DNA of 64,000 nt from a virus. Its lineage: Duplodnaviria > Caudoviricetes. The notes beneath the pieces were generated by a model that worked only from the letters and a program-made list of their open reading frames with translations, had not been told where the DNA came from and ran no database searches. The DNA is taken from positions 1 through 64,000 of the IMG/VR virus record IMGVR_UViG_3300037067_024509. One strand, given 5' to 3'. Both the position numbers and the translations under genes were made by a program. Of the stretch, positions 13,525-63,396 are shown piece by piece; the stretch's first letter is position 1, and each line of letters begins with the position of its first letter.

Positions 13525-14529
13525 ATGACTAAGAAATCAGACTGGACCATAGCAATTGAAAATGTTGGTGAAGTTGAAAGATTGAAATATGAGTTAAAGG
13601 TTGCGAATCAAAAATTATCAGTTTATGAGCAAGCTGGCGATACAACAATACATGAGATTCCAAGTTATAAACCATTGCACGGTGAAGCTATTGCTGTAGC
13701 TGTTTTAAGTGATGTACATGCTGGTGAACGAGTAGATCCAGAAGATGTGCCAGGAACTTATAATATTTATACTCCAGCAATATGCCGTAAGAGATTAGAA
13801 CAATTTGCTCAAAGAGTTGTAATGTTAACTGAAGCAAATAGAAGTTTCATTAAAATAACCGATCTTTGTTTAAATTTAGCCGGTGATTTAATGACTGGAC
13901 ACTTACACGATGATCAAAAAGAATCAAATTGGTTATCACCACTAAAAGAATGGTTATTTGTTCGTAATGAAATTAATTCAGTTATAAAATATATTTTAGA
14001 TAATGGCAAATTTGAAAGAATAATAATACCATGTTGTTTTGGTAATCATGGAAGAATGACCATAAAGCCGCGTGCAAAGACCGCACCAGATACAAACCTT
14101 GAATGGATGTTATATCATATTTTAGAAAGTGATTGGAGAAACGAGAGCAGAATAAAATTCCATATTGCTCATGGATCACAACTTTATTTGGATTTATATG
14201 GTTTTGCATGCAGATTTATGCATGGTGATGATGTGACTTATAGAGGCGGTGTTGGCGGATTGGCAGTACCATTGGGTCAGGCAATCAAAGATTGGGATAA
14301 AGTAAAAGCTGCATCATATACGTTTATGGGACACCACCATACAGCAAGAGATTTTGGTAACGTTATTGTTAATGGTTCTGTTATTGGATATAATGCATAC
14401 GCTCTTAAAAACCATTTCCCATTTGAAAAACCAAGACAGCAGTATGTTTTAATTGATAGAGATAACGGTATATCATCAGTACAAAGTATACGATGCCATT
14501 ATACACCAAGGAAACAAAAAGATGACTAA
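13525..14529 (+). CDS. Calcineurin-like metallophosphoesterase
   Basis: LSDVHAG, AGDL, FGNHG, FMHGD, MGHHH motifs all intact. Confidence 0.88.
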   Translation: MTKKSDWTIAIENVGEVERLKYELKVANQKLSVYEQAGDTTIHEIPSYKPLHGEAIAVAVLSDVHAGERVDPEDVPGTYNIYTPAICRKRLEQFAQRVVMLTEANRSFIKITDLCLNLAGDLMTGHLHDDQKESNWLSPLKEWLFVRNEINSVIKYILDNGKFERIIIPCCFGNHGRMTIKPRAKTAPDTNLEWMLYHILESDWRNESRIKFHIAHGSQLYLDLYGFACRFMHGDDVTYRGGVGGLAVPLGQAIKDWDKVKAASYTFMGHHHTARDFGNVIVNGSVIGYNAYALKNHFPFEKPRQQYVLIDRDNGISSVQSIRCHYTPRKQKDD

Positions 14530-14788: not shown

Positions 14789-15367
14789 GTGATATGTAAA
14801 ATATGCAAAACATGTGGTCAATCAAAGGATATAAAGTGTTTTATAGTAAGTAAGAAGATAATATCAAAATGTCGTGATTGTAGATTGATAACATCAAAAA
14901 ATTATCGTGATACACATAAAGAGTCAATCAGCAAAGCAAAAAGTAAATGTTATTATGCTAAAAAACATGAATATAATACTAAAAATAAATTTAATGCTGA
15001 AAGATCTTACAATAGTTTTATATCGTCATTATTTAGTAGTGTAAAAAAGAGAACTTTATCTAGAGAATATTTTAAATTAAATAGAAAAATAACAAGGAAA
15101 GTAATACAACTTGCTGTAACAGTTGATGATATTGTTAATATTTATGAAAATCAAAATGGCAGATGTGCAATTAGCAATATAAAAATGAAACATGAATTTG
15201 GAAAATTAGAATCTATATCGATAGATAGAATAAATTCAAATGAAGGGTATAATATTGATAATATTCAGTTGATTTGTCAGTTTATAAATCTTGGTAAACA
15301 CAATAAATCAAATAATGAGGTTATTGATTTTTTGAATAATTTAAAAGAAAAATTATGTAATGCGTAA
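14789..15367 (+). CDS. His-Me finger (HNH-like) endonuclease with N-terminal Zn ribbon
   Basis: CKTC/CRDC; QNGRCAISNIKM...SIDRINSNEGYNIDNIQLICQFINLGKH. Confidence 0.75.
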   Translation: MICKICKTCGQSKDIKCFIVSKKIISKCRDCRLITSKNYRDTHKESISKAKSKCYYAKKHEYNTKNKFNAERSYNSFISSLFSSVKKRTLSREYFKLNRKITRKVIQLAVTVDDIVNIYENQNGRCAISNIKMKHEFGKLESISIDRINSNEGYNIDNIQLICQFINLGKHNKSNNEVIDFLNNLKEKLCNA

Positions 15368-15707
15368 AAAACAACCTATTTATCAAAAAAGATGGATTGA
15401 AAAATCATATATTAATTTTTTGAATACTTTATTTATTAGTAATAAGTCAAAATTTGAAAATAGCAATATAACTTTAAAATTATTATTAGAATTATATAAT
15501 AAACAAAATGGTGAATGTGCATTAAGTAAACTTAAAATGTCTAATAAAATTGGTGATTTATATGCTATATCAATAGATAGAATTAATAACAATTTCGGCT
15601 ATAATATAAATAATATACAATTAGTATGCCAATTTATTAATTTAGGTAAGAATAGACATTCAAATGAAGATGTATTTAAGTTTTTTGAACTACTAAAGGA
15701 GTCTTAA
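15360..15707 (+). CDS. His-Me finger (HNH-like) endonuclease, short paralog of 14789..15367
   Basis: QNGECALSKLKM...SIDRINNNFGYNINNIQLVCQFINLGKN. Confidence 0.75.
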   Translation: MRKKQPIYQKRWIEKSYINFLNTLFISNKSKFENSNITLKLLLELYNKQNGECALSKLKMSNKIGDLYAISIDRINNNFGYNINNIQLVCQFINLGKNRHSNEDVFKFFELLKES

Positions 15708-15708
15708 A

Positions 15709-16269
15709 ATGCTATTAAATGGATCAAGATGTTACCTATGTGGACCAATTGAAAATCATGAAGATGATTGGAGAGTTAAAATAACTCCAAAGCTTCAAAA
15801 ATTAGGAATTAAAATATGGAATCCATTGGTAAAACCAAATTGGATGTATAATGTAACAGGGTGCGATCAAAAAAATGACAGGAATTATATTAACAACAAT
15901 ATGAATAATCTTGATAAAGATAAATTACACGAAATTTTTATAAAAAATAATGAGATTAAAAATGTTTGTTTACGTTTAGTATCTGCATGTGACTTTGTTA
16001 TTTGTAAAGTTGGTGGTCCAACAGTAGGAACTTTTCATGAATTGGCAAAAGCTAATGATCAAAATAAACCAATTTTATTTTTTACTGATAATAAAGATAA
16101 AATAGATTCAATGTGGAGATTAGTACAATTTAGCAATGAATATGAAATAAATAATACGTTTTTTGGATTATCTGATGATTTGATTGAATATTTAAATAAA
16201 ATAAATAATAATACAATAACTGTCGATAAATTAAAATGGATATTTTTATCCAATAATTGGCCAGTATAG
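15709..16269 (+). CDS. Nucleoside 2-deoxyribosyltransferase / Rcl(DNPH1)-like dNMP N-glycosidase
   Basis: CYLCGPI (cf. Rcl YFCGSI), ACDFVI, TVGTFHELAKA (catalytic Glu retained), KPILF, DSMW. Confidence 0.8.
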   Translation: MLLNGSRCYLCGPIENHEDDWRVKITPKLQKLGIKIWNPLVKPNWMYNVTGCDQKNDRNYINNNMNNLDKDKLHEIFIKNNEIKNVCLRLVSACDFVICKVGGPTVGTFHELAKANDQNKPILFFTDNKDKIDSMWRLVQFSNEYEINNTFFGLSDDLIEYLNKINNNTITVDKLKWIFLSNNWPV

Positions 16270-16314: not shown

Positions 16315-16953
16315 ATGAATACACCATTAAGTCTCGATAAGTCAATAAAAGTAGAACCATATTTTTTGGCTCCGGATAGAAATTTTCCAGATATAACAAA
16401 AATTGATATAATAGCATCAAAAAATAAGTGCCAGAATGTAATAACATCAGTAGAGTTTTGTGATCTTGTAACAGTGATGAGATCACGATTCAACTCTAAA
16501 TATGGTGTAATAGTCGAAATAGATCCAGACGGTAAAGTGTTTGGATTAAATAAAATGTTAAGAACTAATATAAATTATAGTACAATTGATGGATGTGAAA
16601 TAGGATTATCAAATAATAAAAATTATACTGAATTAATAAATGAAATGAAAGTTACGTCTGATTTTATTAAACAATTTGGTGATCATATAAAAATAAGATG
16701 GATTATAAATGCAATATATGGTTCAAAACATATAGAAAATTGCATTAAAGCAATTAAAGATTGTAATATAAAATATGATTTGATAAGAATAATAACACAA
16801 GCATCAATGGAATTTAAGAATAAAATAGAACTTGGAAACTTAATAAGAGAAGGAATTGGTATAGTGCAGGCTAAAATTAAACTTGAAGTTGATCCAAAAG
16901 ATGTTGTAGTATTAAATAATGTTTTATATTCAACACATATATCTAAATTGTGA
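16315..16953 (+). CDS. Divergent DeoC (deoxyribose-phosphate aldolase)-like TIM barrel
   Basis: By-eye alignment: VEPYFLAPD...DITK ~ IDHTLLKP...DI; VIVEIDPDG...NK ~ TVIGFPLG...K; IDGCEIGL ~ ADEIDMV; KIRWII ~ LKVII; YDLIRI ~ ADFVKT (Schiff-base Lys read as Arg); KIKL ~ VKAS. Confidence 0.45.
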   Translation: MNTPLSLDKSIKVEPYFLAPDRNFPDITKIDIIASKNKCQNVITSVEFCDLVTVMRSRFNSKYGVIVEIDPDGKVFGLNKMLRTNINYSTIDGCEIGLSNNKNYTELINEMKVTSDFIKQFGDHIKIRWIINAIYGSKHIENCIKAIKDCNIKYDLIRIITQASMEFKNKIELGNLIREGIGIVQAKIKLEVDPKDVVVLNNVLYSTHISKL

Positions 16954-17276
16954 TTTGTCCATATTGCAAAACTGATAATGATAAAATAAAAACTGTAATT
17001 AATGGGTTAAAAGTATATTGTTGTACTAATTGCAACAATATATTTAGTTCTGAATTGAATGATCATGAAATATCAACTAAAGGAATGCCTTTATATAATG
17101 TTAATAATATTATAACTCCAAATTTTAAAATAGGTGATTGTATTATGTGTGTTGATAATAAGCATCCATTATTTTTACAAGATGGATTTGTAAAAGAACT
17201 TGACCACTTACATGCTCGTATTTTATTTAAAAAGGATCTTGTATGGATGAATCAAAATGTGATAGCAAAATTATAA
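16950..17276 (+). CDS. Zn-ribbon protein with C-terminal SH3/KOW-like domain
   Basis: CPYC...CTNC; FKIGDCIMCVD...GFVKEL...ARILF. Start codon is GTG. Confidence 0.6.
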   Translation: MICPYCKTDNDKIKTVINGLKVYCCTNCNNIFSSELNDHEISTKGMPLYNVNNIITPNFKIGDCIMCVDNKHPLFLQDGFVKELDHLHARILFKKDLVWMNQNVIAKL

Positions 17277-17770
17277 ATATTAATGAAATTTTGAAGTTTG
17301 AAAATAAAATAATTAATAAATGTTATAAAAGTAAGTTAGATATTAATAAATCGGTAATGTTAATTACATATTTGTGGTCACAAGTTCGCTCTAAAGATCC
17401 AAACACTAAAGTTGGATCATCAATTTATGATTATGAAAGTGGGGCATTATTCTTAGGGTACAATGGATTTCCAGTTGGATTTCCAGATAAAGTATCATTA
17501 TGGAATAATAGAAGTAAAGATGATAAACATAATAAATATGCTTACGTGGTACATGCCGAACAAAATAATTTCATAAAAGCTATTAATAAATTTAATCCAA
17601 AAACATCTGTGATGTTTATAACAAATTATCCATGTCATAATTGTGTAAAGAATGTTATTTTACCAAGCAAAATAAAAATAATATATTATATGGATACATA
17701 CCCATATGATGAAGTATCATATAAAATGTTAAAAACTTTAAAAGTAAAAATGATAAAAATTAAATTATAA
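17243..17770 (+). CDS. dCMP deaminase
   Basis: RSKDPNTKVG, GYNGFP, VVHAEQN, YPCHNC zinc/catalytic motifs. Confidence 0.9.
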   Translation: MDESKCDSKIININEILKFENKIINKCYKSKLDINKSVMLITYLWSQVRSKDPNTKVGSSIYDYESGALFLGYNGFPVGFPDKVSLWNNRSKDDKHNKYAYVVHAEQNNFIKAINKFNPKTSVMFITNYPCHNCVKNVILPSKIKIIYYMDTYPYDEVSYKMLKTLKVKMIKIKL

Positions 17771-17815: not shown

Positions 17816-19039
17816 ATGTTTGATACCAATTTTATTTTTAAAAAAGGAAAATTAACAATATTGGGGGACGGAACTTTCGGATCGAGTGGCAAGGCCGCCA
17901 TTGCATCATTTATTTGTGAACATGCAGACTATGATTTTGCATGTAACTCGTTTTCTGCTCAGGCTGGTCATTGGTCAAGATTAGATAATGGAAAATCATA
18001 TTTTTATCAAACTTTTAATAGTTGTGCTTATCAAAATAAATATCAAAGACTTTTGATTGGTCCAGATGCAGCAATTGAATTATCGGCTCTTAAGAGAGAA
18101 ATAGAAGAAAACAATATTCCAATTAATAAAATTGGAATACATCCACTGGCCACTATTATTCAAGAAAAAGATATGGCTTATGAGCGTGGAGAAGTTGATT
18201 TTGAAGGTAATATGTTTAATAAATTAGAAGATGGTACGAAAAAACACGGCAGCACTTGTCATGGTACAGGCCCGGCAAGAGTTAGAAAAATGTTAAGGAG
18301 AAAGGATACTTTATATGCTAAAGATGTTCCAGATTTGAAAGACATGATATGTGATGTTTCAAATGAAATAATTTCAAGATTGGATGCTGGTCAAACAGGA
18401 TTACTTGAAATAGCTCAAGGATTTCCACTTAGTTTAAATTATAGATTTCATCCTGCATGTACTAATAGAAACGTCACAGTATCAGCGGCTCTAGATGGTA
18501 TGTTTATTCCACCGATTTATGCTGGTAATATAATTCTTAACTATAGAACATTTCCTATTAGAATAAGTAGTTATAAATATATTGGTGATAATGGTAAATT
18601 TTTGACATGGGCAGAAGTTGAAGAATATAAAATTGCAGGAAAAAAATATGAAATATATAAAGGAGATTCTGGTGGTTGGTATAATGACCAAACTGAGGTT
18701 GATTGGGATTATATAACTAAAATAAGTGAATCGAATACCAAAATAATGGAATTAACTAGTGTTACAAAATTGCCAAGACGTGTAGCCACTTTTTCAAAAG
18801 AATGTTTAGAAGATTCCATAAAATTTAACAGGACAGGTCACGATATTTATTTATCAATAAATTTTATGAATTATGTTGATAGTAAAATTAGCGGTATTCG
18901 TGGAAATGGATACAATAAACTTACTGATAAATCGAAAGAATGGTTAAAAGAAAATGTTGATGAAATAGCAAATAAATATAATGCTAAAGTTATGTTTATT
19001 GGAACTGGAGCAAAAACAGACGACAAAATAATATTATAA
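17816..19039 (+). CDS. purZ: PurZ-type adenylosuccinate synthetase homologue (N6-succino-2-amino-dAMP synthase candidate)
   Basis: P-loop FGSSGK (PurA GDEGK Asp replaced by Ser, as in PurZ GSTGK); AGH; GST..G; EIAQGFPLSL; CTNR; RTFPIR; SGGWYNDQ.E..W; ELTSVTKLPRRV.TFS; INFMNY (PurZ-type, not the PurA TKLD). RBS aggaga. Confidence 0.85.
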   Translation: MFDTNFIFKKGKLTILGDGTFGSSGKAAIASFICEHADYDFACNSFSAQAGHWSRLDNGKSYFYQTFNSCAYQNKYQRLLIGPDAAIELSALKREIEENNIPINKIGIHPLATIIQEKDMAYERGEVDFEGNMFNKLEDGTKKHGSTCHGTGPARVRKMLRRKDTLYAKDVPDLKDMICDVSNEIISRLDAGQTGLLEIAQGFPLSLNYRFHPACTNRNVTVSAALDGMFIPPIYAGNIILNYRTFPIRISSYKYIGDNGKFLTWAEVEEYKIAGKKYEIYKGDSGGWYNDQTEVDWDYITKISESNTKIMELTSVTKLPRRVATFSKECLEDSIKFNRTGHDIYLSINFMNYVDSKISGIRGNGYNKLTDKSKEWLKENVDEIANKYNAKVMFIGTGAKTDDKIIL

Positions 19040-19525
19040 TTTTGGCCATAATTTTTTATCGATTTTTAATTGTGATAATAATTTTGTAGACATTAATTTT
19101 ATAATACTTATATCGTTTATCGCTACTGGCGGATTATCATGGAATATTTTGTTCCATTCTATATTTTTATCGTTCCATAATGATATAATATTATTAATAT
19201 ATTTTTTATGATTATTTTTCATATGGCTTGGATCAATTATTATTCCAGCTAATGTTATTAATATTATAGTTTTTGGATTACCTTCTATATTATTCGTATT
19301 TATACCTGGTGTTTCAAAGAATTCTGATTGATATATTTCTTTTAATACTTTTGATATTGTTATATCTTCTTTTATTTCATCAACTTTACAATATAATTCT
19401 TTATTATCATCATCCCATGTTTTTGATATTATTATATAAATTTTATTATTGCTAATTATTGTATCGTTTACTATTAAATGGTCTGGTACATTGCATATAC
19501 TGATTTTTTCGTTATAAACTTGCAT
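19034..19525 (-). CDS. Hypothetical protein
   Basis: 163-aa ORF filling the gap between purZ and dnaE on the opposite strand. Confidence 0.55.
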   Translation of the reverse strand: MQVYNEKISICNVPDHLIVNDTIISNNKIYIIISKTWDDDNKELYCKVDEIKEDITISKVLKEIYQSEFFETPGINTNNIEGNPKTIILITLAGIIIDPSHMKNNHKKYINNIISLWNDKNIEWNKIFHDNPPVAINDISIIKLMSTKLLSQLKIDKKLWPKL

Positions 19526-19558: not shown

Positions 19559-22500
19559 ATGGCTATAGAATGGGATGATATTGTAAAGTATGCGAAGCGT
19601 GAGGCTGATAAGCTTGGACCTGAATATACTAAACGATTAGAATTTGAAATAAATGAGATTGAAAAGCAAGCCGCTAGTGAATATTATATCCAACTTTTGA
19701 ATGATAAAAAGAAATACGACACTAATAAAAATGGATTAGTACTGCCATTTATATTAAAAATAACAAATATAGACCCTATAAAAAATAATGTCGGTCATAT
19801 TATCACATATGAAGCAGATTATCCCGATATTGACTCAGATTTCCTCCCTCATGCTCGTGATTCAGTAAAGAAATTTATATCTGATAAGTTTGGTGCTGAT
19901 AAAGTTTGTACAGTTGGTAATTGGAATACCCTTGGCGTCAGGCAAGCTGTGCTCGATTCAGCACGAATTCTTGGTGCTGACCTTGATAAAGCTAATGCTG
20001 TTACAAAGAATTTATCTAAAGATTTTGAAGAACTTATTGATCTTGATGACATGCTTTCTGCTAGTGATGAATTTAGATCTTATTATGAATCTAATAGAGA
20101 AGTAGTTGAATTAGCTCTTCGTCTTGTTGGTAAGATTAAGAGCCAGGGTCAACATGCTGGTGGTGTTATTATTAGCAGCGTTCATTTAGCTGACACTATT
20201 CCGATGAGTATTATTAAAGGTAAGCAGGTTAGTCAATGGACTGAAGGTATGGCGTCAGTTCAGCTTAGTAAATTTGGATTAGTTAAATTCGATATTCTTG
20301 GTCTAAATACTTTAGCCTATAATACTTATACAGAAGAATTGGTTAAGAAGAATAGAGGAGTTATTATTGATTGGAGTGAAAGTGATCCTACTTGTGAAGA
20401 ACCTTACTTTGGGTATGAAACTTATCCTGATGGTACTAAAATTAAAATTTTAATGAATGATCCATTAGCTATCAAATTAGCTGACAATGTTAAAACTGAT
20501 GCTGTGTTCCAATTTGACACTCCAGTTGCTAAAGGTGTATTATCTAATGGAGTTAAAACATTTTTTGATCTTGTGACATATACGGCAATGGCCCGGCCAG
20601 GTCCAATTTCGATGATACCAGAGCTTGTTGCTCGTAGAGATGACCCTAAGCAAAGCTGGAAGAAAAAAGAAGATCCAAGAATTGTTGAAATGTTAGAGAA
20701 AACTTTTGGCATAGTTTGTGTACATGAAGATACAATGATATCTATGTCTAATGGGTTGGAAACTAGGATTAAAGATATTAATGTTGGTGACAAAGTTTTT
20801 TCTGTTTCTGAAAATGATAGAAAAATTAATTCAAATAAAGTTATTAACAAGATAAAAACAAAATTTGGTTATGGTTTAAGATTGACTTTAAATAATGGTA
20901 TTGATGCCATCTTTACTCCTGACCATAAAGTTTTAACTCATGATGGATATAAAGAAGTTCAACTACTTAATGAAAATGATGTAATTGCAATAGCTTATAA
21001 TTTTAAATGGAAAGGCAAATCTAGAAATATTGCTGAATGGCTTGGTAATAATAATGATGTTTCTTATTTTATTGGATTGTTAGTTGGTGATGGATGTTTA
21101 ACATCTTCTAATTATTGTATTGCAGTAGGATCTAAAAAAGATGCTTTGATAGTTAAAAAATTTATTGATAAAAATCTTAAATTAAATACTAATTTATTTT
21201 TTCACACTAGGTGTTGGTATATTTCATTTAATTCAAATTATAAAGATGAGTTTAAAGTTGATGAAAATGATTTTTTGAATCATAAAGACAATTATAATTG
21301 GTGGAATTTTGTATTGAACAAATATACGATTGATGAAATTCACAATAATTTAAAAAAATATGGTTTTAAAAGAAGTATATGGATGATTTTTCATAGAATG
21401 AATAAATTTAATATTAAGAAAAAATTAATAAATAGATCTAAAACTAAGTTGCATAGTTGGATTGAAGAGATTGGTTTAAACTGTAATTTTTATAATAAGA
21501 GAGTGCCTGAGTGTATAATGACTGGAAATGAATCTATAAGAGCATATTTTTTGGCTGGTTTGATTGATTCAGATGGATGTATATCTAAATCAAAAAGAAA
21601 TATTACATGTGTAAATATTAGTTCAATTAATAAATTATTATTAAATGATATTAGAAAAATATTAAATGGTTTTGGAATGCATTATAAATTATATAAACAC
21701 AGAATATATATATGGAGCACAGAGAAATTAAAAAAATTAATTAATGATAAGTTGGTCATAAAAACAATGGGAAATGGTAAATTATTGAATGGTAAATATT
21801 TATGTGAATATCCAATATCTGCAATGAATAGTATTGGATATCAAAAATTGATGAGCTTTGGTATACCAAAAGCAACAATAATTGGAAACAGAAATTCGGA
21901 TAGGAAATTTATAATTAATAAAACTATAAATAAACTCGGTATAAATTTAGGTGATCTGCAATTTTATTCTGTTAGATCTATTGATAAAGTCGAAAATTGC
22001 CAATTTTATGATATAACTGTTGAAAATGATCATTCTATGATATGTAATGGCATGGTTGCGCATAATTGTTACCAAGAGCAGTTAACGGCTGTTTGGATGA
22101 AATTCGGAGGATTAACAGCACCAGAAGCAGAAAAGGCTAGAAAGGCAGTTGCTAAGAAGAAGCGTGATGAAGTTTTGAAGTTGGGTCCAAAGATTATTTC
22201 TGGTATGATTAAAAATGGCTTTAAGGATGACCCATCTAAACCTGATGAAGAAGGTAAGTTTCCTCAATCTGATCCGTATTCTGCTCAGGGATATTGGTCA
22301 AGAATGGTTGATTTCGGAAGATATTGCTTTAATCTTAGTCATGCGATGGCCTACGGAATTGTTGCTTATCGTGCTTTGTGGTTGAAGGCTCATTATCCTC
22401 CGGAGTTTTGGGCGTCTATTTTGACTTATTGTAAGCTTGAGTCTAAACCTAAATATGTTAGTGTTGCTAAGGCTGAGGGTGTTAATTTTAGGCCATTGAG

Positions 22501-23374
22501 AGTTGGTATGTTTTCTGATAGATTTACTGTTGATAAGGACTTGAATGTTTATCCTAGTTTGTCTATGGTTAAGGGTATAGGTGATAGTGCTGCTAAGAAT
22601 TATAGTGTTGATGGTGGTTCTTGTACAAGTTTTGATGATTTTTTGGTGAAGTATGGTAAGAGTAAGGCTGTTATGGAGAGGTTGATTAAGCTTGGTGCTT
22701 TTGATGATATAGAGTCTAATAGGAATGGACTATGGAATTGGTATTTGTATAAGTATTGTTCAAAATCTGAAGATGTTGATGCTGTTAGAAAGAATATTAA
22801 TGATAAGATTATTGGTGTTGAATGGCCTGCTGATAAAATTAAAATTGAGCGTGAACGTCAGTTAGATGAATTTAAAAAATTATTTCCAAAAAAGAAGCCA
22901 CTTAAAAGGATTACTGAATGGGAGCCTAAAATTGGTTATAAATATGATTATCCTACTATAAAAGAGGTTATTAATTTATTTGATGATTATACTTTAAAAG
23001 AGAAGTTAATGTTTGAGAAGGAATATCTTGGTGTTTATTGGACTGATCCTATGCAGTTGTTTGAATATGATAGGGAATATTGTTTTGAGAATGCCAAGGT
23101 TGAAGAGGATTATTATGTTGATGGTATTGTTGAAGGATTTAATGATGCTAGAACTAAGAATGGTAAGAGGTTTAGGAATTATAATGTTAGTGATGGTGTA
23201 GAGACTAATGCTATTAAAATTTGGGAAGATTCTATTAAATATCAGGATGAAGAGGTTTATAAACCTGGATGTGGTGTAAGGGTTCCAGTTAAATGGTCTG
23301 AAAAATATCATTCATTTAGTCTACAACGTAATTGCAGTATAGTATCATTAAGGAATAAACGTGTTACATCCTAG
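19559..23374 (+). CDS. dnaE: DNA polymerase III alpha (family C, DnaE-like), lacking the N-terminal PHP domain, intein-containing
   Basis: YPDIDSDF, GQHAGGV, GLVKFDILGL, VFQF, RPGP, (intein) CYQEQL, CFNLSHA, KGIG HhH, C-terminal OB fold. Begins at the Y..RL..E..I segment that follows PHP in full-length DnaE. Confidence 0.93.
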   Translation: MAIEWDDIVKYAKREADKLGPEYTKRLEFEINEIEKQAASEYYIQLLNDKKKYDTNKNGLVLPFILKITNIDPIKNNVGHIITYEADYPDIDSDFLPHARDSVKKFISDKFGADKVCTVGNWNTLGVRQAVLDSARILGADLDKANAVTKNLSKDFEELIDLDDMLSASDEFRSYYESNREVVELALRLVGKIKSQGQHAGGVIISSVHLADTIPMSIIKGKQVSQWTEGMASVQLSKFGLVKFDILGLNTLAYNTYTEELVKKNRGVIIDWSESDPTCEEPYFGYETYPDGTKIKILMNDPLAIKLADNVKTDAVFQFDTPVAKGVLSNGVKTFFDLVTYTAMARPGPISMIPELVARRDDPKQSWKKKEDPRIVEMLEKTFGIVCVHEDTMISMSNGLETRIKDINVGDKVFSVSENDRKINSNKVINKIKTKFGYGLRLTLNNGIDAIFTPDHKVLTHDGYKEVQLLNENDVIAIAYNFKWKGKSRNIAEWLGNNNDVSYFIGLLVGDGCLTSSNYCIAVGSKKDALIVKKFIDKNLKLNTNLFFHTRCWYISFNSNYKDEFKVDENDFLNHKDNYNWWNFVLNKYTIDEIHNNLKKYGFKRSIWMIFHRMNKFNIKKKLINRSKTKLHSWIEEIGLNCNFYNKRVPECIMTGNESIRAYFLAGLIDSDGCISKSKRNITCVNISSINKLLLNDIRKILNGFGMHYKLYKHRIYIWSTEKLKKLINDKLVIKTMGNGKLLNGKYLCEYPISAMNSIGYQKLMSFGIPKATIIGNRNSDRKFIINKTINKLGINLGDLQFYSVRSIDKVENCQFYDITVENDHSMICNGMVAHNCYQEQLTAVWMKFGGLTAPEAEKARKAVAKKKRDEVLKLGPKIISGMIKNGFKDDPSKPDEEGKFPQSDPYSAQGYWSRMVDFGRYCFNLSHAMAYGIVAYRALWLKAHYPPEFWASILTYCKLESKPKYVSVAKAEGVNFRPLRVGMFSDRFTVDKDLNVYPSLSMVKGIGDSAAKNYSVDGGSCTSFDDFLVKYGKSKAVMERLIKLGAFDDIESNRNGLWNWYLYKYCSKSEDVDAVRKNINDKIIGVEWPADKIKIERERQLDEFKKLFPKKKPLKRITEWEPKIGYKYDYPTIKEVINLFDDYTLKEKLMFEKEYLGVYWTDPMQLFEYDREYCFENAKVEEDYYVDGIVEGFNDARTKNGKRFRNYNVSDGVETNAIKIWEDSIKYQDEEVYKPGCGVRVPVKWSEKYHSFSLQRNCSIVSLRNKRVTS
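20717..22066 (+). mobile_element. 450-aa intein with LAGLIDADG homing endonuclease in DnaE
   Basis: N-junction FGIV|CVHEDTMI; block B TPDHKV; LAGLIDADG motifs IGLLVGDG and LAGLIDSDG; C-junction FYDITVENDHS...VAHN|CYQEQL. Splicing restores FGIVCYQEQ. Confidence 0.95.
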
Positions 23375-32198: not shown

Positions 32199-33311
32199 AT
32201 GATAGTGGCAGTTTTTTCATGGGATAATAATAATAGGCCAATAAATTATTCTTTATATAAGGATAAAGTATTAATTAGAAGAAATGATCTTTGGAAAATT
32301 GGTTCTAAAAAGAAAATTATAGAAATAATTAAAGAACAATCTATTTTAAATAAGATTCTATCATCTGTAAATGAATTTGTGATTGTTAATTATAAAAAAT
32401 ATTTAGATTATTTTAAATGTGGATTTAATGATGTTTATGATTATCCTGGGGCTGTTGAACATGATAAACATGATGAGTTTGTTAATTCTAATTGGGATGA
32501 ATTTGGTAAGAATTGGCAAAAGTTAAGAGGTAATGCTGCTAAAGTTTATTATAAATTAGAAAAATGTGGTGTTATGCTTGAGTATAAAAATATGTTTCCG
32601 GTTTATGACATGAATGTTTTTAGTGGTAGATCTAGTACTACTGGATTTAATATTCAAGGTTGTAATAAAGAATTTAATATTAAACATGTTAATTCTTCAA
32701 ATAATATTTTTGTTCATTTCGATTGGATGGCTGCTGATATTAGAATTGCTGCTATTTTATCTGGTGATAAAGATTTAATTGATAGTTATTTAAAATCTGA
32801 TCCATATTCACATATTGTGAATATTTTAGATGGATCTGTTGATAGAGATCAATGCAAGAGCGAATTTATGCAGGCTATATATGGTCTTAATCCTGATCAT
32901 GAGATTCTGGCTGTATTTCCAACTTGTAAAAAGTGGATTTCTGATATGGTAATTGAACTTAATAATAATGGATTTGTTAGATCAATTCTTGGCAGAAAAT
33001 ACTTAACTGATGGTACAATTAAAGGTAATAGGAGGGCGTTTAATAGTATTATGCAGGGTAGTGTAGCTCATGCTATGAATAATGTGATATCAAAAATTGA
33101 TAATAAATTTGAAAATATTATTTTAACTGAGCAGCATGACTCTTTGACTGCGTGTGTTAATGAATTCAATTTTCAAGATACTATTAAATATATATCTAAT
33201 ATAATGCTGAAACCATTTGAAGGAATTTTGGATGGCAATATTACTATGCCATTAAGAATTCATGTTGGGAAACATTGGCGTGTATATAAACAAATTAAGG
33301 AAGTAAGATGA
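32199..33311 (+). CDS. Minimal family-A DNA polymerase (palm plus fingers; no recognisable thumb or exonuclease)
   Basis: FSGRSSTTGFNIQG (TGRLSS..PNLQ), motif A FDWMAADIRI, motif B RDQCKSEFMQAIYG, RSILGR, NSIMQGSVA, motif C QHDS. Confidence 0.85.
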   Translation: MIVAVFSWDNNNRPINYSLYKDKVLIRRNDLWKIGSKKKIIEIIKEQSILNKILSSVNEFVIVNYKKYLDYFKCGFNDVYDYPGAVEHDKHDEFVNSNWDEFGKNWQKLRGNAAKVYYKLEKCGVMLEYKNMFPVYDMNVFSGRSSTTGFNIQGCNKEFNIKHVNSSNNIFVHFDWMAADIRIAAILSGDKDLIDSYLKSDPYSHIVNILDGSVDRDQCKSEFMQAIYGLNPDHEILAVFPTCKKWISDMVIELNNNGFVRSILGRKYLTDGTIKGNRRAFNSIMQGSVAHAMNNVISKIDNKFENIILTEQHDSLTACVNEFNFQDTIKYISNIMLKPFEGILDGNITMPLRIHVGKHWRVYKQIKEVR

Positions 33312-34946: not shown

Positions 34947-34983
34947 ATTGACGCCCATGAGACAATATCTCATGGGCGTCAAT
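34947..34983 (+). terminator. Perfect 16-bp hairpin after the SSB gene; probable intrinsic terminator overlapping the next start codon
   Basis: attgacgcccatgaga-caata-tctcatgggcgtcaat followed by gtatttt; the right arm includes the A and T of ATG 34982. Confidence 0.75.
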
Positions 34984-35833
34984 GTATTTTAAAATAATGG
35001 ACATTTTAATAGATGGTAAAAATGTTGTTTATAGATCATTATTTGCGGCTTTAGATAAAATAACTGGTAAAGTTAAAGTTGATCCAATAATAATAGCATT
35101 ACGACAATTTGTAAAATGGAGACGTATTTATAAGCCTGATAATTGGTGTATTTTTTGGGATGTTCCAAAAAATAATTTATGGCGTAAAAAATTATATCCG
35201 CCATATAAAGAAGGTAGAGACAAATCATTTATTGATAAATCAACATTAAGTGAATTAGTTAGCAGATTTAATACCATATTTATAAATATACTTCATAATA
35301 TGAAAATGACTCAATTTATTAAAAGTGAAAATGAAGCAGATGATTTAATATATGCATATATTAAAGCTTATAATGATAAAGAATTATTGATTGTATCAAG
35401 TGATGGTGATATGGTACAAGTTTTATTAAAATGTAATAATGTTAAATTACATGATCCTAAAAATAAAGATATATTATATGTTCCAAAACCAGAATATGAT
35501 CCTGTAACAGTTAAATGTTTATCTGGTGATACAAGTGACAACATTGATGGATATAGGTTGGTTGGCGATATAACTGCTAAAAAAATAATGCGTGAAAATA
35601 GAGTTGATGCTTTTTTATCTGAAAAAGGCAGAGAAATGTTTGATTTGAATAAAAAATTAGTTGATTTTGATATGAATGATGATTTGAATAGTAATATTGA
35701 GTATATTAAATCAGTTAAGAAAAATGACAAGTTTGATATCAAAGCTATTAACAATATAATTGATAAATATAGTCTTACTGAATTAAAACAATTAATGTCT
35801 GATTTAATAATACCGTTTAAATATAATCCTTGA
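34982..35833 (+). CDS. 5'-3' exonuclease / flap endonuclease (T4 RNase H, Pol I 5'-nuclease family)
   Basis: LIDGKN, FWD, YKEGR, EADDLI, SSDGDM, GDTSDNIDG. Confidence 0.93.
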   Translation: MYFKIMDILIDGKNVVYRSLFAALDKITGKVKVDPIIIALRQFVKWRRIYKPDNWCIFWDVPKNNLWRKKLYPPYKEGRDKSFIDKSTLSELVSRFNTIFINILHNMKMTQFIKSENEADDLIYAYIKAYNDKELLIVSSDGDMVQVLLKCNNVKLHDPKNKDILYVPKPEYDPVTVKCLSGDTSDNIDGYRLVGDITAKKIMRENRVDAFLSEKGREMFDLNKKLVDFDMNDDLNSNIEYIKSVKKNDKFDIKAINNIIDKYSLTELKQLMSDLIIPFKYNP

Positions 35834-61827: not shown

Positions 61828-63396
61828 ATGATAGACTGGCAAAAGACTAATGAATTATTTGGAATATTAGAAAATACAGTAACTTCAAAAGATAAAATAG
61901 TTGTAATTTGTAATAGTTGTAAATCAATACGTAATATATCATATATTACATATAAAAATCAAATAAGATTAACTGGTAGTGATGATTGTCAATCATGTAA
62001 AGGTAAGGCTAATAGAATAAAATATTCAGATTCATATAAATTAAGTGATGAAAATAGGTCAAAATCATTATCATTAACAATGAAGAAAAAATGGGAAAAT
62101 GAACAATATAAAAATGAACAAATAAATATATTTAATTCTGACATTAATAAAGAAAAATTGTCGAATGCATTAAAGGATAAATGGAAAGATGAAAATTATA
62201 AAAATAAAATAATTTCATCTATTAGATATAATTGGAATGATGAAGAATATAAAAATAAAATGAAGATTATACATGATAGTAAAGAGTTTAAGGTAAAATC
62301 AAAACCAAAATTGTCAAAAGAACAGTTATTAAAATTAAAAAATGGTGTAAAAGAAAAATGGAAAGATAAAGATTATAAAAATATTCAATCATTATCTAGA
62401 ATAGGTAAAATTACTAGTGATAAAACTAAAAAGAAATTACATGATATAATGTTATCAAAATGGCAAGAACATGAATATAAAACAAATGTTTGTATTGGAA
62501 GAGAAAAAATTAAAGGTAATGAATCATCAATAGAAATTATTTTATATAGTATATTGGATGATCTTGGATTAAAATATATTAAGCAATTTAGAATTGGTTT
62601 TTATTTATTTGATTGTTTTTTACCTGATTATAATATTTTAATTGAATGTAATGGTGACTATTGGCATTCATTAAATAAAGCGATTAAAAATGATAAAACT
62701 AAATCTTCATATATTATTAATAATTTTCCGCAATATAAATTATACACAATATGGGAACATGAATTTAAATGTAAGGATAAAATAATTGAATTAATTAAAT
62801 ATTGGACTGGTGTTAATATTGATTTGATTGATTTTGAATTTAATAATTTAATTATTAAAGATATTAGTTTGAAGGACGCTAAATTATTTGTTGATAAATA
62901 TCATTACTCTGGAACTATTGGCAATACTGTATATAGGTTTGGTTGCTATCTTGGCAATGAATTGATAGCTTTGTGTAATTTTGGTAATACTACTAGAAAT
63001 GAATCTGCTACTAGATTAAATATTAAGTTTTGTGAACTTCTTGAATTGACTAGATTTTGTATTCACCCAAAATATCAAAAGAAGAATTTTGCATCATGGT
63101 TTATTAGTAGATGTATTAATGATATTAAACATTTAAATAAATATAAATGTTTAATATCATTTGCTGATAATACCTATAATCATGATGGTATTATTTATAA
63201 AGCATCAAATTGGAAAATAGATGGTATTGTTGATCCTTCTTACTGGTATGTTGATACTAATGGTTATGTCATGCATAAGAAAACTTTATGGAATCATGCA
63301 ACTCAGATGAAAATGTCCGAGAATGAATTTGCAAATAAATATGGATATATTAAAGTTATTGGTAAGGAGAAAATTAGATATATTTATTGGTTATAA
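61828..63396 (+). CDS. Free-standing endonuclease-like protein: Zn finger, K/W-rich helical repeats, DUF559/Vsr-like nuclease and Mom-like GNAT domain
   Basis: CNSC/CQSC; repeated ..KW.D..YK.. units; FRIG.Y..D.......IECNGDYWH, IWEHE; HYSG, LELTRFCI, LISFAD, HDGIIYKASNW. Confidence 0.75.
   Translation: MIDWQKTNELFGILENTVTSKDKIVVICNSCKSIRNISYITYKNQIRLTGSDDCQSCKGKANRIKYSDSYKLSDENRSKSLSLTMKKKWENEQYKNEQINIFNSDINKEKLSNALKDKWKDENYKNKIISSIRYNWNDEEYKNKMKIIHDSKEFKVKSKPKLSKEQLLKLKNGVKEKWKDKDYKNIQSLSRIGKITSDKTKKKLHDIMLSKWQEHEYKTNVCIGREKIKGNESSIEIILYSILDDLGLKYIKQFRIGFYLFDCFLPDYNILIECNGDYWHSLNKAIKNDKTKSSYIINNFPQYKLYTIWEHEFKCKDKIIELIKYWTGVNIDLIDFEFNNLIIKDISLKDAKLFVDKYHYSGTIGNTVYRFGCYLGNELIALCNFGNTTRNESATRLNIKFCELLELTRFCIHPKYQKKNFASWFISRCINDIKHLNKYKCLISFADNTYNHDGIIYKASNWKIDGIVDPSYWYVDTNGYVMHKKTLWNHATQMKMSENEFANKYGYIKVIGKEKIRYIYWL

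Follow-up and report, generated by a model that had tools for sequence, protein, structure and literature searches.

The phages characterised as carrying 2-aminoadenine (Z) in place of adenine (A) in their DNA are small siphoviruses and podoviruses (PMC8599892), and purZ, mazZ and datZ together form a set that is sufficient for A to Z replacement in E. coli DNA (PMC8342488). Enzymes of the NDT superfamily also occur in such phages: DmtZ is a dAMP hydrolase/transferase (PMC12884076), and NDT-M2 prefers dA (10.1101/2025.10.22.683976). Here we examined a stretch of viral DNA of 64,000 nucleotides (the window), which is the first 64 kb of the 82.7 kb IMG/VR contig IMGVR_UViG_3300037067_024509 and encodes a PurZ-like protein at positions 17816 to 19039. 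Judged by its sequence this protein is an ATP-type PurZ-family enzyme of a distinct large-phage subclade, and we think it probable that phages with this PurZ-type enzyme produce the Z deoxynucleotide (dZ) and incorporate it into their DNA, with adenine being excluded by a non-classical route.

The gene and its product, with a length in amino acids (aa), are as follows:

17816 to 19039, forward strand: homolog of PurZ-clade succino-aminodeoxyadenylate synthases, large-phage subclade, 407 aa, ATG start (assigned from family and PDB matches, motifs, tree and residues)

Its family match is far beyond chance. Homology to adenylosuccinate synthetases was found with PF00709 at 46.2 bits (cut-off 27), PHROG 1211 matched at 3e-34, and the best PDB matches were phiVC8 PurZ (1.6e-24) and Pyrococcus horikoshii PurA (3.2e-24), then S-2L PurZ (9e-12). 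The open reading frame (ORF) contains all the motifs that a preliminary description of this DNA had listed, with GSSGK(A) at residues 22–27, QAGHW at 49–53, RTFPIR at 244–249, SGGWYNDQTEVDW at 285–297, VTKLPRR at 316–322 and INFMNY at 348–353. The insert of roughly 30 aa that had been noted after RTFPIR is real as well, since the alignment with phiVC8 PurZ skips from query residue 251 to 283, leaving about 31 aa (residues 252–282) after PIRIS. This insert is common only to the core subclade, to which the window gene belongs, and to the MaF61-like subclade, named after the cultured Flavobacterium phage MaF61; it is longer in MaF61, and neither classical PurZ nor a jumbo-phage branch has it.

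Among 120 homologs with at least 50% identity, Ser stands at the PurA-Asp13 position in all 119 that align there, and the N, F and Y of NFxNY are kept in 120/120. Inteins are frequent in PurZ-like homologs (P0122-P0129, P0135, P0192, P0209, P0228, P0257 and L101:5709-8063), giving products of 750–824 aa with Hint and LAGLIDADG domains, and they sit at two or more conserved sites, one ahead of the Cys in C-T-S/N-R-N (C215 in the query) and one inside G-S-T-C-H-G (about S146–C148 in the query). No intein was found in the window PurZ-like copy. Because Ser and the NFxNY residues do not vary and the homologs carry inteins in two active-site motifs, the protein appears to be under strong constraint.

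Positions that determine specificity in phiVC8 and S-2L PurZ were taken from 10.1101/2025.10.22.683976 and PMC8342488, and the query carries the expected residue at all of the published ATP-type positions. S23 corresponds to S14 of phiVC8, P247 to P233, Y289 to Y244, W297 to W252 and T314 to T262, and F350 and Y353 correspond to F295 and Y298, which stack on the adenine ring of ATP. At the position of E. coli Arg303, the contact to the 2′-OH, the query has L319, with Leu also found in S-2L and SH-Ab 15497. N352 completes the ATP pocket, standing in for the GTP-specifying Asp that is retained in E. coli PurA, in PurZ0 and in the archaeal type. An SGxxYxDQ insertion (SGGWYNDQ in the query) is present in all PurZ and in none of PurZ0, the archaeal type, P. 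horikoshii PurA and E. coli PurA; in S-2L an insertion of this type (A242–W250, near the sugar) has been tied to crowding at C2′ (PMC8342488). These specificity positions are essentially invariant over 120 clade members. In place of the canonical PurA features (GDEGKG with Asp13, Arg303 and the (N/T)KxD GTP motif) the query has S23, L319 and NFMNY, and it departs from PurZ0 in N352, in having the insertion and in branching away from the PurZ0 of Gordonia phage Ghobes. What the analysis establishes is the family of the protein, its active-site signature, the synteny and the lack of the classical helper genes; which substrate the enzyme prefers, what its partner proteins do, and whether and how far virion DNA contains Z are inferred.

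The phylogeny agrees with the residues. In an IQ-TREE tree of 79 sequences (LG+G4), rooted on E. coli PurA as a single long outgroup, holding no Asp-type archaeal PurA and with a bootstrap that had not fully converged, the window protein falls within a 69-row clade with the PurZ of phiVC8, S-2L and SH-Ab 15497 (ultrafast bootstrap 100 / Shimodaira–Hasegawa-like approximate likelihood ratio test 98). Ghobes PurZ0, an archaeal GGEGK/GSEGK group and E. coli PurA lie outside this clade, the first two being basal. All of the large-phage sequences are in one 28-row group (94/99), and the window protein is in an 11-row core clade within it (98/99). The preliminary description had proposed an ATP-type PurZ-signature enzyme of a distinct clade, and residues and tree bear this out on both counts. 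The subclade ranges over phage contigs of 25–356 kb with guanine-plus-cytosine (GC) contents of 28–60%, plus the one cultured myovirus, MaF61, and AT-richness is not a trait of the clade. As a whole, every applicable sequence and phylogenetic feature of PurZ is found in this protein, and it departs from PurZ only in its score against one curated hidden Markov model (HMM) and in its gene neighbourhood.

A word-indexed search returned 276 homologs, most with at least 50% identity and on contigs of up to 331 kb, and an exhaustive search of 1.84 billion proteins gave 1302 representatives at E <= 1e-3. None of the nearest 150 representatives (clustered at 50% identity) has Asp at the PurA-Asp13 position, the readable ones all having Ser save one with Gly. 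In 50,697 isolate phage genomes the query and its MaF61 homolog match only the known small Z phages and MaF61; ordinary PurA homologs of phages, which number several hundred, were matched by neither. For comparison, 481 PF00709 proteins have been counted in NCBI phages, 147 of these being PurZ or PurZ0 (PMC12884076). That the characterised Z phages are much smaller than this one, as the preliminary description had it, agrees with our isolate-phage matches and with PMC8599892, where they are siphoviruses and podoviruses. A separate PurZ branch, with GSTGK and NFANY, was seen in the jumbo genomes L036, L037 and L071 (275 kb contig) and in L041, whose 356 kb genome has terminal repeats and is 100% complete; these proteins have 27–29% identity to the query and keep the normal NAGHT loop.

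In the core subclade a recurrent module lies directly upstream of the PurZ-like gene, and in the window the genes of the module and the ORF on the other side of the PurZ-like gene are the following:

15709 to 16269, forward strand: NDT-superfamily protein, 186 aa (PF05014, E=1e-7; AlphaFold2 (AF2) mean confidence, pLDDT, 83.7)

16315 to 16953, forward strand: (beta/alpha)8 barrel protein with the fold of deoxyribose-5-phosphate aldolase (DERA/DeoC), 212 aa (AF2 pLDDT 86.8, pTM 0.85)

16950 to 17276, forward strand: small Cys-rich ORF inside the module, 108 aa (no Pfam or PHROG match)

17243 to 17770, forward strand: dCMP deaminase, 175 aa (PF00383, E=2.5e-10; phrog_174, E=2.4e-21)

19034 to 19525, reverse strand: ORF of 163 aa between the PurZ-like gene and the DnaE gene (no family match; kept in the closest relatives)

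Eighty IMG/VR loci with 10 kb flanks were compared, and families were searched for in whole records of 27 large phages and six classical PurZ controls, the large-phage set including a 356 kb genome (100% complete), a 247 kb genome (91%) and the complete MaF61. The order of the core module is NDT-like, DERA-like, often a dCMP deaminase, then PurZ, with the NDT-like/DERA-like pair immediately upstream of the PurZ-like gene. Reverse look-ups seeded with the DERA-like protein recovered the same module three times out of three, with a PurZ-like gene within 2 kb. The dCMP deaminase has the same position in relatives, DCD or ThyX standing there in other members, and a slot similar to that of the Cys-rich ORF holds an ORF of about 100 aa in two relatives. 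The 163-aa ORF is found in the same position in L003 (phmmer, 2e-64) and L031 (3e-34).

The NDT-like gene is present in 10 of the 27 large-phage records, all of which also bear the DERA-like gene, and in none of the six controls, and it adjoins the DERA-like gene in every locus examined. Foldseek matches of its model are NDT, DNPH1/Rcl and MilB, the same structural neighbours that were reported for DmtZ (PMC12884076). The catalytic Tyr and nucleophile Glu of the NDT fold are both found, as the invariant Y9 in YLxGP(V/I)E and E111 in TVGTFxE. To compare it with DmtZ we used gene 53 of Ghobes, recognised by Y6, D12, P57, N77, E103 and W124. There was no phmmer match between the two proteins, and hhalign gave E=0.0017 at a probability of 16%, with the Glu nucleophile and the Trp lid aligned and Asn77 of DmtZ set over a conserved Cys. 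We read the NDT-like protein and DmtZ as members of the same superfamily, possibly with analogous roles, and by this analogy we take the NDT-like protein as a candidate dAMP/dA N-glycosidase or transferase.

The DERA-like protein has no match in Pfam (including PF01791) or PHROG, and was recognised by its predicted structure. The top ~40 PDB neighbours of the model in Foldseek are all deoxyribose-5-phosphate aldolases (TM ~0.7), and in the ESM Atlas it reaches TM 0.81 to a DeoC cluster. An hhalign comparison of the family with E. coli DeoC was not significant, and its sole segment sets IRxD over FIKTS, the strand of Lys167. On that non-significant alignment the Schiff-base strand has Arg in 11 of 15 family members and Lys in two, with no conserved equivalent of E. 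coli K167. With Arg in most members where the Schiff-base Lys would stand, the barrel is unlikely to follow canonical aldolase chemistry; the model argues for the DERA fold and leaves that chemistry doubtful. A profile search found the gene in 14 of the large-phage records, as a single copy, and in none of the controls, and at the loci inspected 1–2 kb separate it from the PurZ-like gene. The positive records include two jumbo genomes with a PurZ of the different branch described above. In the jumbo genomes the DERA-like gene is ~1 kb upstream of PurZ and dUTPase and NUDIX genes are present, with no NDT-like gene, DatZ or DUF550. By tblastn, neither the DERA-like nor the NDT-like protein matched any of the 50,697 isolate phages.

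PurB (Lyase_1) is encoded in six of the large-phage records (G012, G013, G014, G018, G019 and MaF61) and in none of the controls, and the MaF61-like subgroup carries it in place of the core module. The PurB and DERA-like genes were never found together among the 27 records, the DERA-like side of this comparison being G000-G011, G017, G021 and G023. Their mutual exclusion could mark two alternative architectures, or just the sampling of fragments.

If dZ is indeed made and used by these phages, the window PurZ would join dGMP and aspartate at the expense of ATP to give N6-succino-2-amino-2′-deoxyadenylate (dSMP), a host or phage PurB and then kinases would take dSMP to dZTP, and the phage replisome would set Z opposite T. 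Adenine would have to be excluded in these large phages without the set of DatZ, MazZ, DUF550 and DpoZ. The NDT-like enzyme could do this by cleaving or trans-glycosylating dAMP or dA, in the manner of DmtZ and NDT-M2 from other Z phages, and the DERA-fold barrel may handle the deoxyribose-5-phosphate moiety. The NDT-like/DERA-like module fits adenine removal because NDT enzymes are reported to remove dAMP or dA in Z phages.

Several observations weigh against this reading, beginning with the neighbourhood. In classical PurZ loci DpoZ is almost always beside purZ, and DatZ and MazZ or DUF550 are found in most; the window gene lacks this association. YfbR-like (DatZ) proteins above the family cut-off were found in none of the 27 large-phage records as opposed to all six controls, and DUF550 in none as opposed to five of six. 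Searched for at the loci only, a homolog of S-2L MazZ was absent within 10 kb of any large-phage gene, and a homolog of SH-Ab DpoZ was absent within 10 kb in the core subclade. The search for datZ, mazZ and DUF550 that had been suggested for the rest of the genome returned no HD (PF01966), MazG (PF03819) or DUF550 (PF04447) protein in the 82.7 kb contig, which is only ~23% of the genome. In the wider large-phage group (10 kb flanks), a DpoZ-like match and a weak DatZ-like one come from three loci. Genes of the dUTPase family, found in 9 of the 27 records and in no control, could act like DutZ, yet they are common in large phages anyway, and where some relatives have dUTPase-like or DCD genes next to the module, dTTP supply, as for the dCMP deaminase here, seems a simpler explanation than DutZ. 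The protein also stays under the cut-off of the NCBIfam PurZ model NF038379 (E=7e-39, 133.8 bits, cut-off 300), and the archaeal short-PurA model NF003295 scores it similarly (139.8 bits, under its cut-off of 368).

Three of the remaining objections concern the enzyme and its setting. The loop QAGHW of the core subclade (Q49, W53) replaces an otherwise universal NAGHT, which touches the NTP phosphates in S-2L PurZ (PMC8342488). A large archaeal family with the annotation adenylosuccinate synthetase shows Gly or Ser in place of Asp13, so that Ser alone is no proof of dGMP use. It is represented by P0240 and P0271-P0389 (4447 matches at E <= 1e-10), has GGEGKG (80) or GSEGKG (40) instead of GDEGKG, branches near PurZ0 and includes proteins labelled as Archaeoglobaceae and as Halobacteriota metagenome-assembled genomes. 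Contigs enriched in dZ have been reported as GC-rich (10.1101/2025.10.22.683976), against 29% GC here. On the side of adenine exclusion, no dATP-hydrolysing enzyme was identified. A dAMP N-glycosidase alone cannot stop dADP from ribonucleotide reductase from becoming dATP. It is because of this missing dATP-hydrolysing enzyme, the dATP that a glycosidase would leave, and the QAGHW change in the loop for the NTP phosphates that we call the reading probable and go no further.

Other genes were considered for the missing functions and set aside. NUDIX, as an alternative dATP pyrophosphatase, is present in only three of the 27 large-phage records and in none of the controls. GuaA, as an extra supplier of guanine nucleotides, was seen once, yet it was found in 0/33 records and was dropped. 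A metallophosphoesterase at 13525 to 14529 was rejected as a dATPase, as in a relative a gene of this kind stands directly ahead of a Rad50-like AAA_23 gene, and by analogy we read it as a putative Mre11/gp47-type nuclease.

The same absences could be explained by PurZ chemistry with a different outcome, in which virion DNA is a hybrid of A and Z for want of a dATP destroyer, or dZ nucleotides serve to manipulate the pool or as the precursor of a further modification. YfbR-like and DUF550 proteins are lacking even from near-complete genomes, no MazZ or DpoZ is near the gene in the core subclade, and it was purZ with mazZ and datZ that was sufficient in E. coli (PMC8342488). Nevertheless, we find this outcome rather unlikely, given that the tightly conserved NDT-like/DERA-like pair suggests adenine removal and that the natural PurZ-clade phages analyzed so far are all reported to be fully substituted (PMC13128860). 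An auxiliary adenylosuccinate synthetase that acts on IMP or dIMP, boosting AMP or dAMP with a PurB partner, would require no Z at all. The PurB pairing in the MaF61-like subgroup, the archaeal synthetase-annotated proteins with Gly or Ser at Asp13, the lack of DatZ and the AT-rich genome would all suit such an enzyme, but the protein is nested in the PurZ clade apart from PurA and the archaeal type, it carries the insertion found only in PurZ, no longer has an equivalent of Arg303 and has a pocket of the ATP type, and it matched no ordinary phage PurA homolog in isolate phages. A neighbour predicted to destroy dAMP would moreover oppose that role, and because the clade spans 28–60% GC an adaptation to AT supply does not account for the gene. 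We consider AMP supply improbable.

The least probable of the explanations weighed here is a drift of the subclade towards another substrate or product, in which the QAGHW loop and the 31-aa insert would alter how nucleotides are handled, the DERA-fold protein would be a new enzyme that takes over from PurB on the succinylated intermediate, and a different modified purine would result. The changes of N to Q49 and T to W53 and the insert are clade-specific, the DERA-like gene and PurB exclude each other in our records, and the Schiff-base Lys is mostly Arg, as might be expected if that were so. However, the anti-correlation comes from a small number of records that are often fragments, the known Z phages manage with the PurB of the host, the DERA-like-bearing jumbo genomes keep the normal NAGHT loop, and nothing points directly to a new product. 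Production of dZ and its incorporation into phage DNA is the reading that we favour.

The source phage is, by its gene content, a large T4-like myovirus, because the window encodes a T4-type portal, large terminase, sheath, tube, gp15, gp25 and baseplate J. With 29% GC (CheckV completeness of the contig 23%), the large AT-rich T4-like myophage of the preliminary description is supported. Near-identical DNA was found in several studies, namely in metagenomes from groundwater (2022) and from landfill (2018) and in one study of 2019. By megablast, 20 kb of window sequence matched no isolate phage. Avoidance of 4-mer palindromes in the contig was not marked, with all observed/expected ratios between 0.5 and 1.2, and is uninformative. 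Replication genes in the window are RecA, a DnaB-like helicase, a Toprim primase, a 5′-3′ exonuclease and an intein-bearing DnaE-type polymerase, and those that bear on the polymerase are:

19559 to 23374, forward strand: DnaE-type (family C) polymerase alpha subunit, 1271 aa, with an intein and a LAGLIDADG homing endonuclease (domain matches, assigned via the translation)

32199 to 33311: family-A polymerase-domain protein, 370 aa (C-terminal third of the domain only, E=1.4e-13)

34982 to 35833: separate 5′-3′ exonuclease/FEN, near the family-A polymerase-like gene

The DnaE assignment comes from domain matches in a batch of 28 ORFs (DNA_pol3_alpha 6e-35, finger domain 9e-22, HHH_6, Intein_splicing 6e-17 and LAGLIDADG_3), and a relative carries an intein-free version of 822 aa in the same position, adjoining the PurZ-like gene. 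The phage had been called DnaE-using, and while a DnaE-type polymerase is present, the statement is incomplete and needs qualifying because the small family-A polymerase gene and the separate exonuclease are also in the window. In L041, the jumbo genome of 356 kb, a family-A polymerase-like homolog (7e-50) lies ~8 kb away from the PurZ-like gene. At least one further ORF at 32–64 kb of the window has Hint/intein and LAGLIDADG matches.

With the polymerases in view, the favoured reading can be given a more specific form, which we put forward as a tentative possibility: a third, as yet undescribed, route to Z-DNA in large T4-like and jumbo phages that combines this PurZ subclade, removal of dAMP or dA by the NDT-like enzyme, the DERA barrel that has lost its lysine and a DnaE replisome rather than DpoZ. 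In this third route the barrel would consume deoxyribose-5-phosphate or act on the succinylated intermediate in the place of PurB.

Two further sets of genes were seen in the contig. Mom-family domains (PF25680, E=5e-32 and 2e-12) are found in two proteins of ~440–530 aa, at 61828 to 63396 of the window and at 78210 to 78752 of the contig, which is beyond the window. Mom-family genes recur in relatives, the 356 kb genome having five copies; neither the classical PurZ controls nor MaF61 have any. The N6 of adenine is the target of the Mom modification of phage Mu. Just upstream of the module, at 14789 to 15707, there is a pair of paralogous ORFs (192 and 115 aa) with the common C-terminal motif SIDRIN...GY...NIQL(I/V)CQFINLGK. 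This pair may be the source of DUF723/DUF4379 zinc-finger matches and may be homing-endonuclease-like.

To our knowledge, every Z-genome phage characterised is a small siphovirus or podovirus with DatZ/MazZ/DUF550 or DutZ/DmtZ helpers, most of them with DpoZ, and we found no paper on PurZ in a myovirus or jumbo phage. Members of the subclade may already be, unremarked, among the viruses, more than 2000 in number, for which homology to PurZ has led to a prediction as Z phages (PMC13128860). What is new is the large-phage PurZ subclade and its modules, which have NDT-like and DERA-like genes (or PurB) and no DatZ. If the favoured reading is true, Z modification would extend to large myoviruses and jumbo phages with genomes of 150–360 kb, one of only 29% GC, Z-DNA could be maintained by a family-C replisome, and adenine exclusion would have at least a third evolutionary origin, with new enzymes in the form of an NDT-like protein and a barrel derived from DERA. 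These enzymes could then help to make dZ-DNA in vitro or in cells. If on the other hand the DNA is canonical, PurZ-signature residues alone would be no predictor of a Z genome, a result that would bear on the homology-based predictions (PMC13128860).

Compared with canonical PurA (E. coli, and the short form of P. horikoshii, PDB 2D7U/5K7X), the query has the same fold and catalytic core, sharing the G-x-x-G-K loop and the equivalents of His41, Thr129, Arg143, Gln224 and Arg305. PurA differs in having GDEGKG, TGRRRR and a (T/L)KxD or LDK GTP motif, and in having no PurZ insertion. The ATP-dependent PurZ of phiVC8, S-2L and SH-Ab 15497, respectively a Vibrio phage, a cyanophage and an Acinetobacter phage (PDB 6FM1, 7ODX), belong to the same well-supported clade as the query (100/98) and are alike in the Ser, Thr, Pro, Tyr, Trp, Phe and Tyr determinants, the loss of Arg303, the Asn for the GTP-type Asp and SGxxYxDQ. 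They have 26–29% identity to the query, lack the ~31-aa insert and have NAGHT instead of QAGHW. Their phages are siphoviruses and podoviruses of 38–67 kb, whereas the gene described here is in a large T4-like myovirus with no adjacent DatZ, MazZ/DUF550 or DpoZ.

The accessory logic may be analogous to that of the PurZ0 system of Ghobes (a phage of Gordonia) and Wayne (a phage of Arthrobacter), which consists of PurZ0, DutZ and DmtZ (PMC12884076). The points of likeness are an NDT-superfamily enzyme encoded beside the synthetase, dUTPase-family genes, which many of the genomes have, and a phage PurB in some, Ghobes encoding PurB as the MaF61-like subgroup does. In contrast to PurZ0, the query has the PurZ-type insertion and Asn for the GTP-type Asp and is outside the PurZ0 clade; the NDT-like protein is not detectably orthologous to DmtZ, and a DERA-fold partner has not been described for PurZ0 phages. 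MaF61, whose published description (PMC13269007) is silent on the gene and on the chemistry of its DNA, has a loop, N-A-S-H-T, that keeps the Asn and Thr, has PurB ~10 kb off and is without the NDT-like and DERA-like genes. With that said, its ORF141, a "putative adenosuccinate synthetase" (PQ858689; PMC13269007), has 36% identity to the query, the same signature residues and the same type of insert. MaF61 is a myovirus of 167.8 kb in the sister subclade and the only cultured phage of the large-phage PurZ group, and as it is in culture the question is directly testable.

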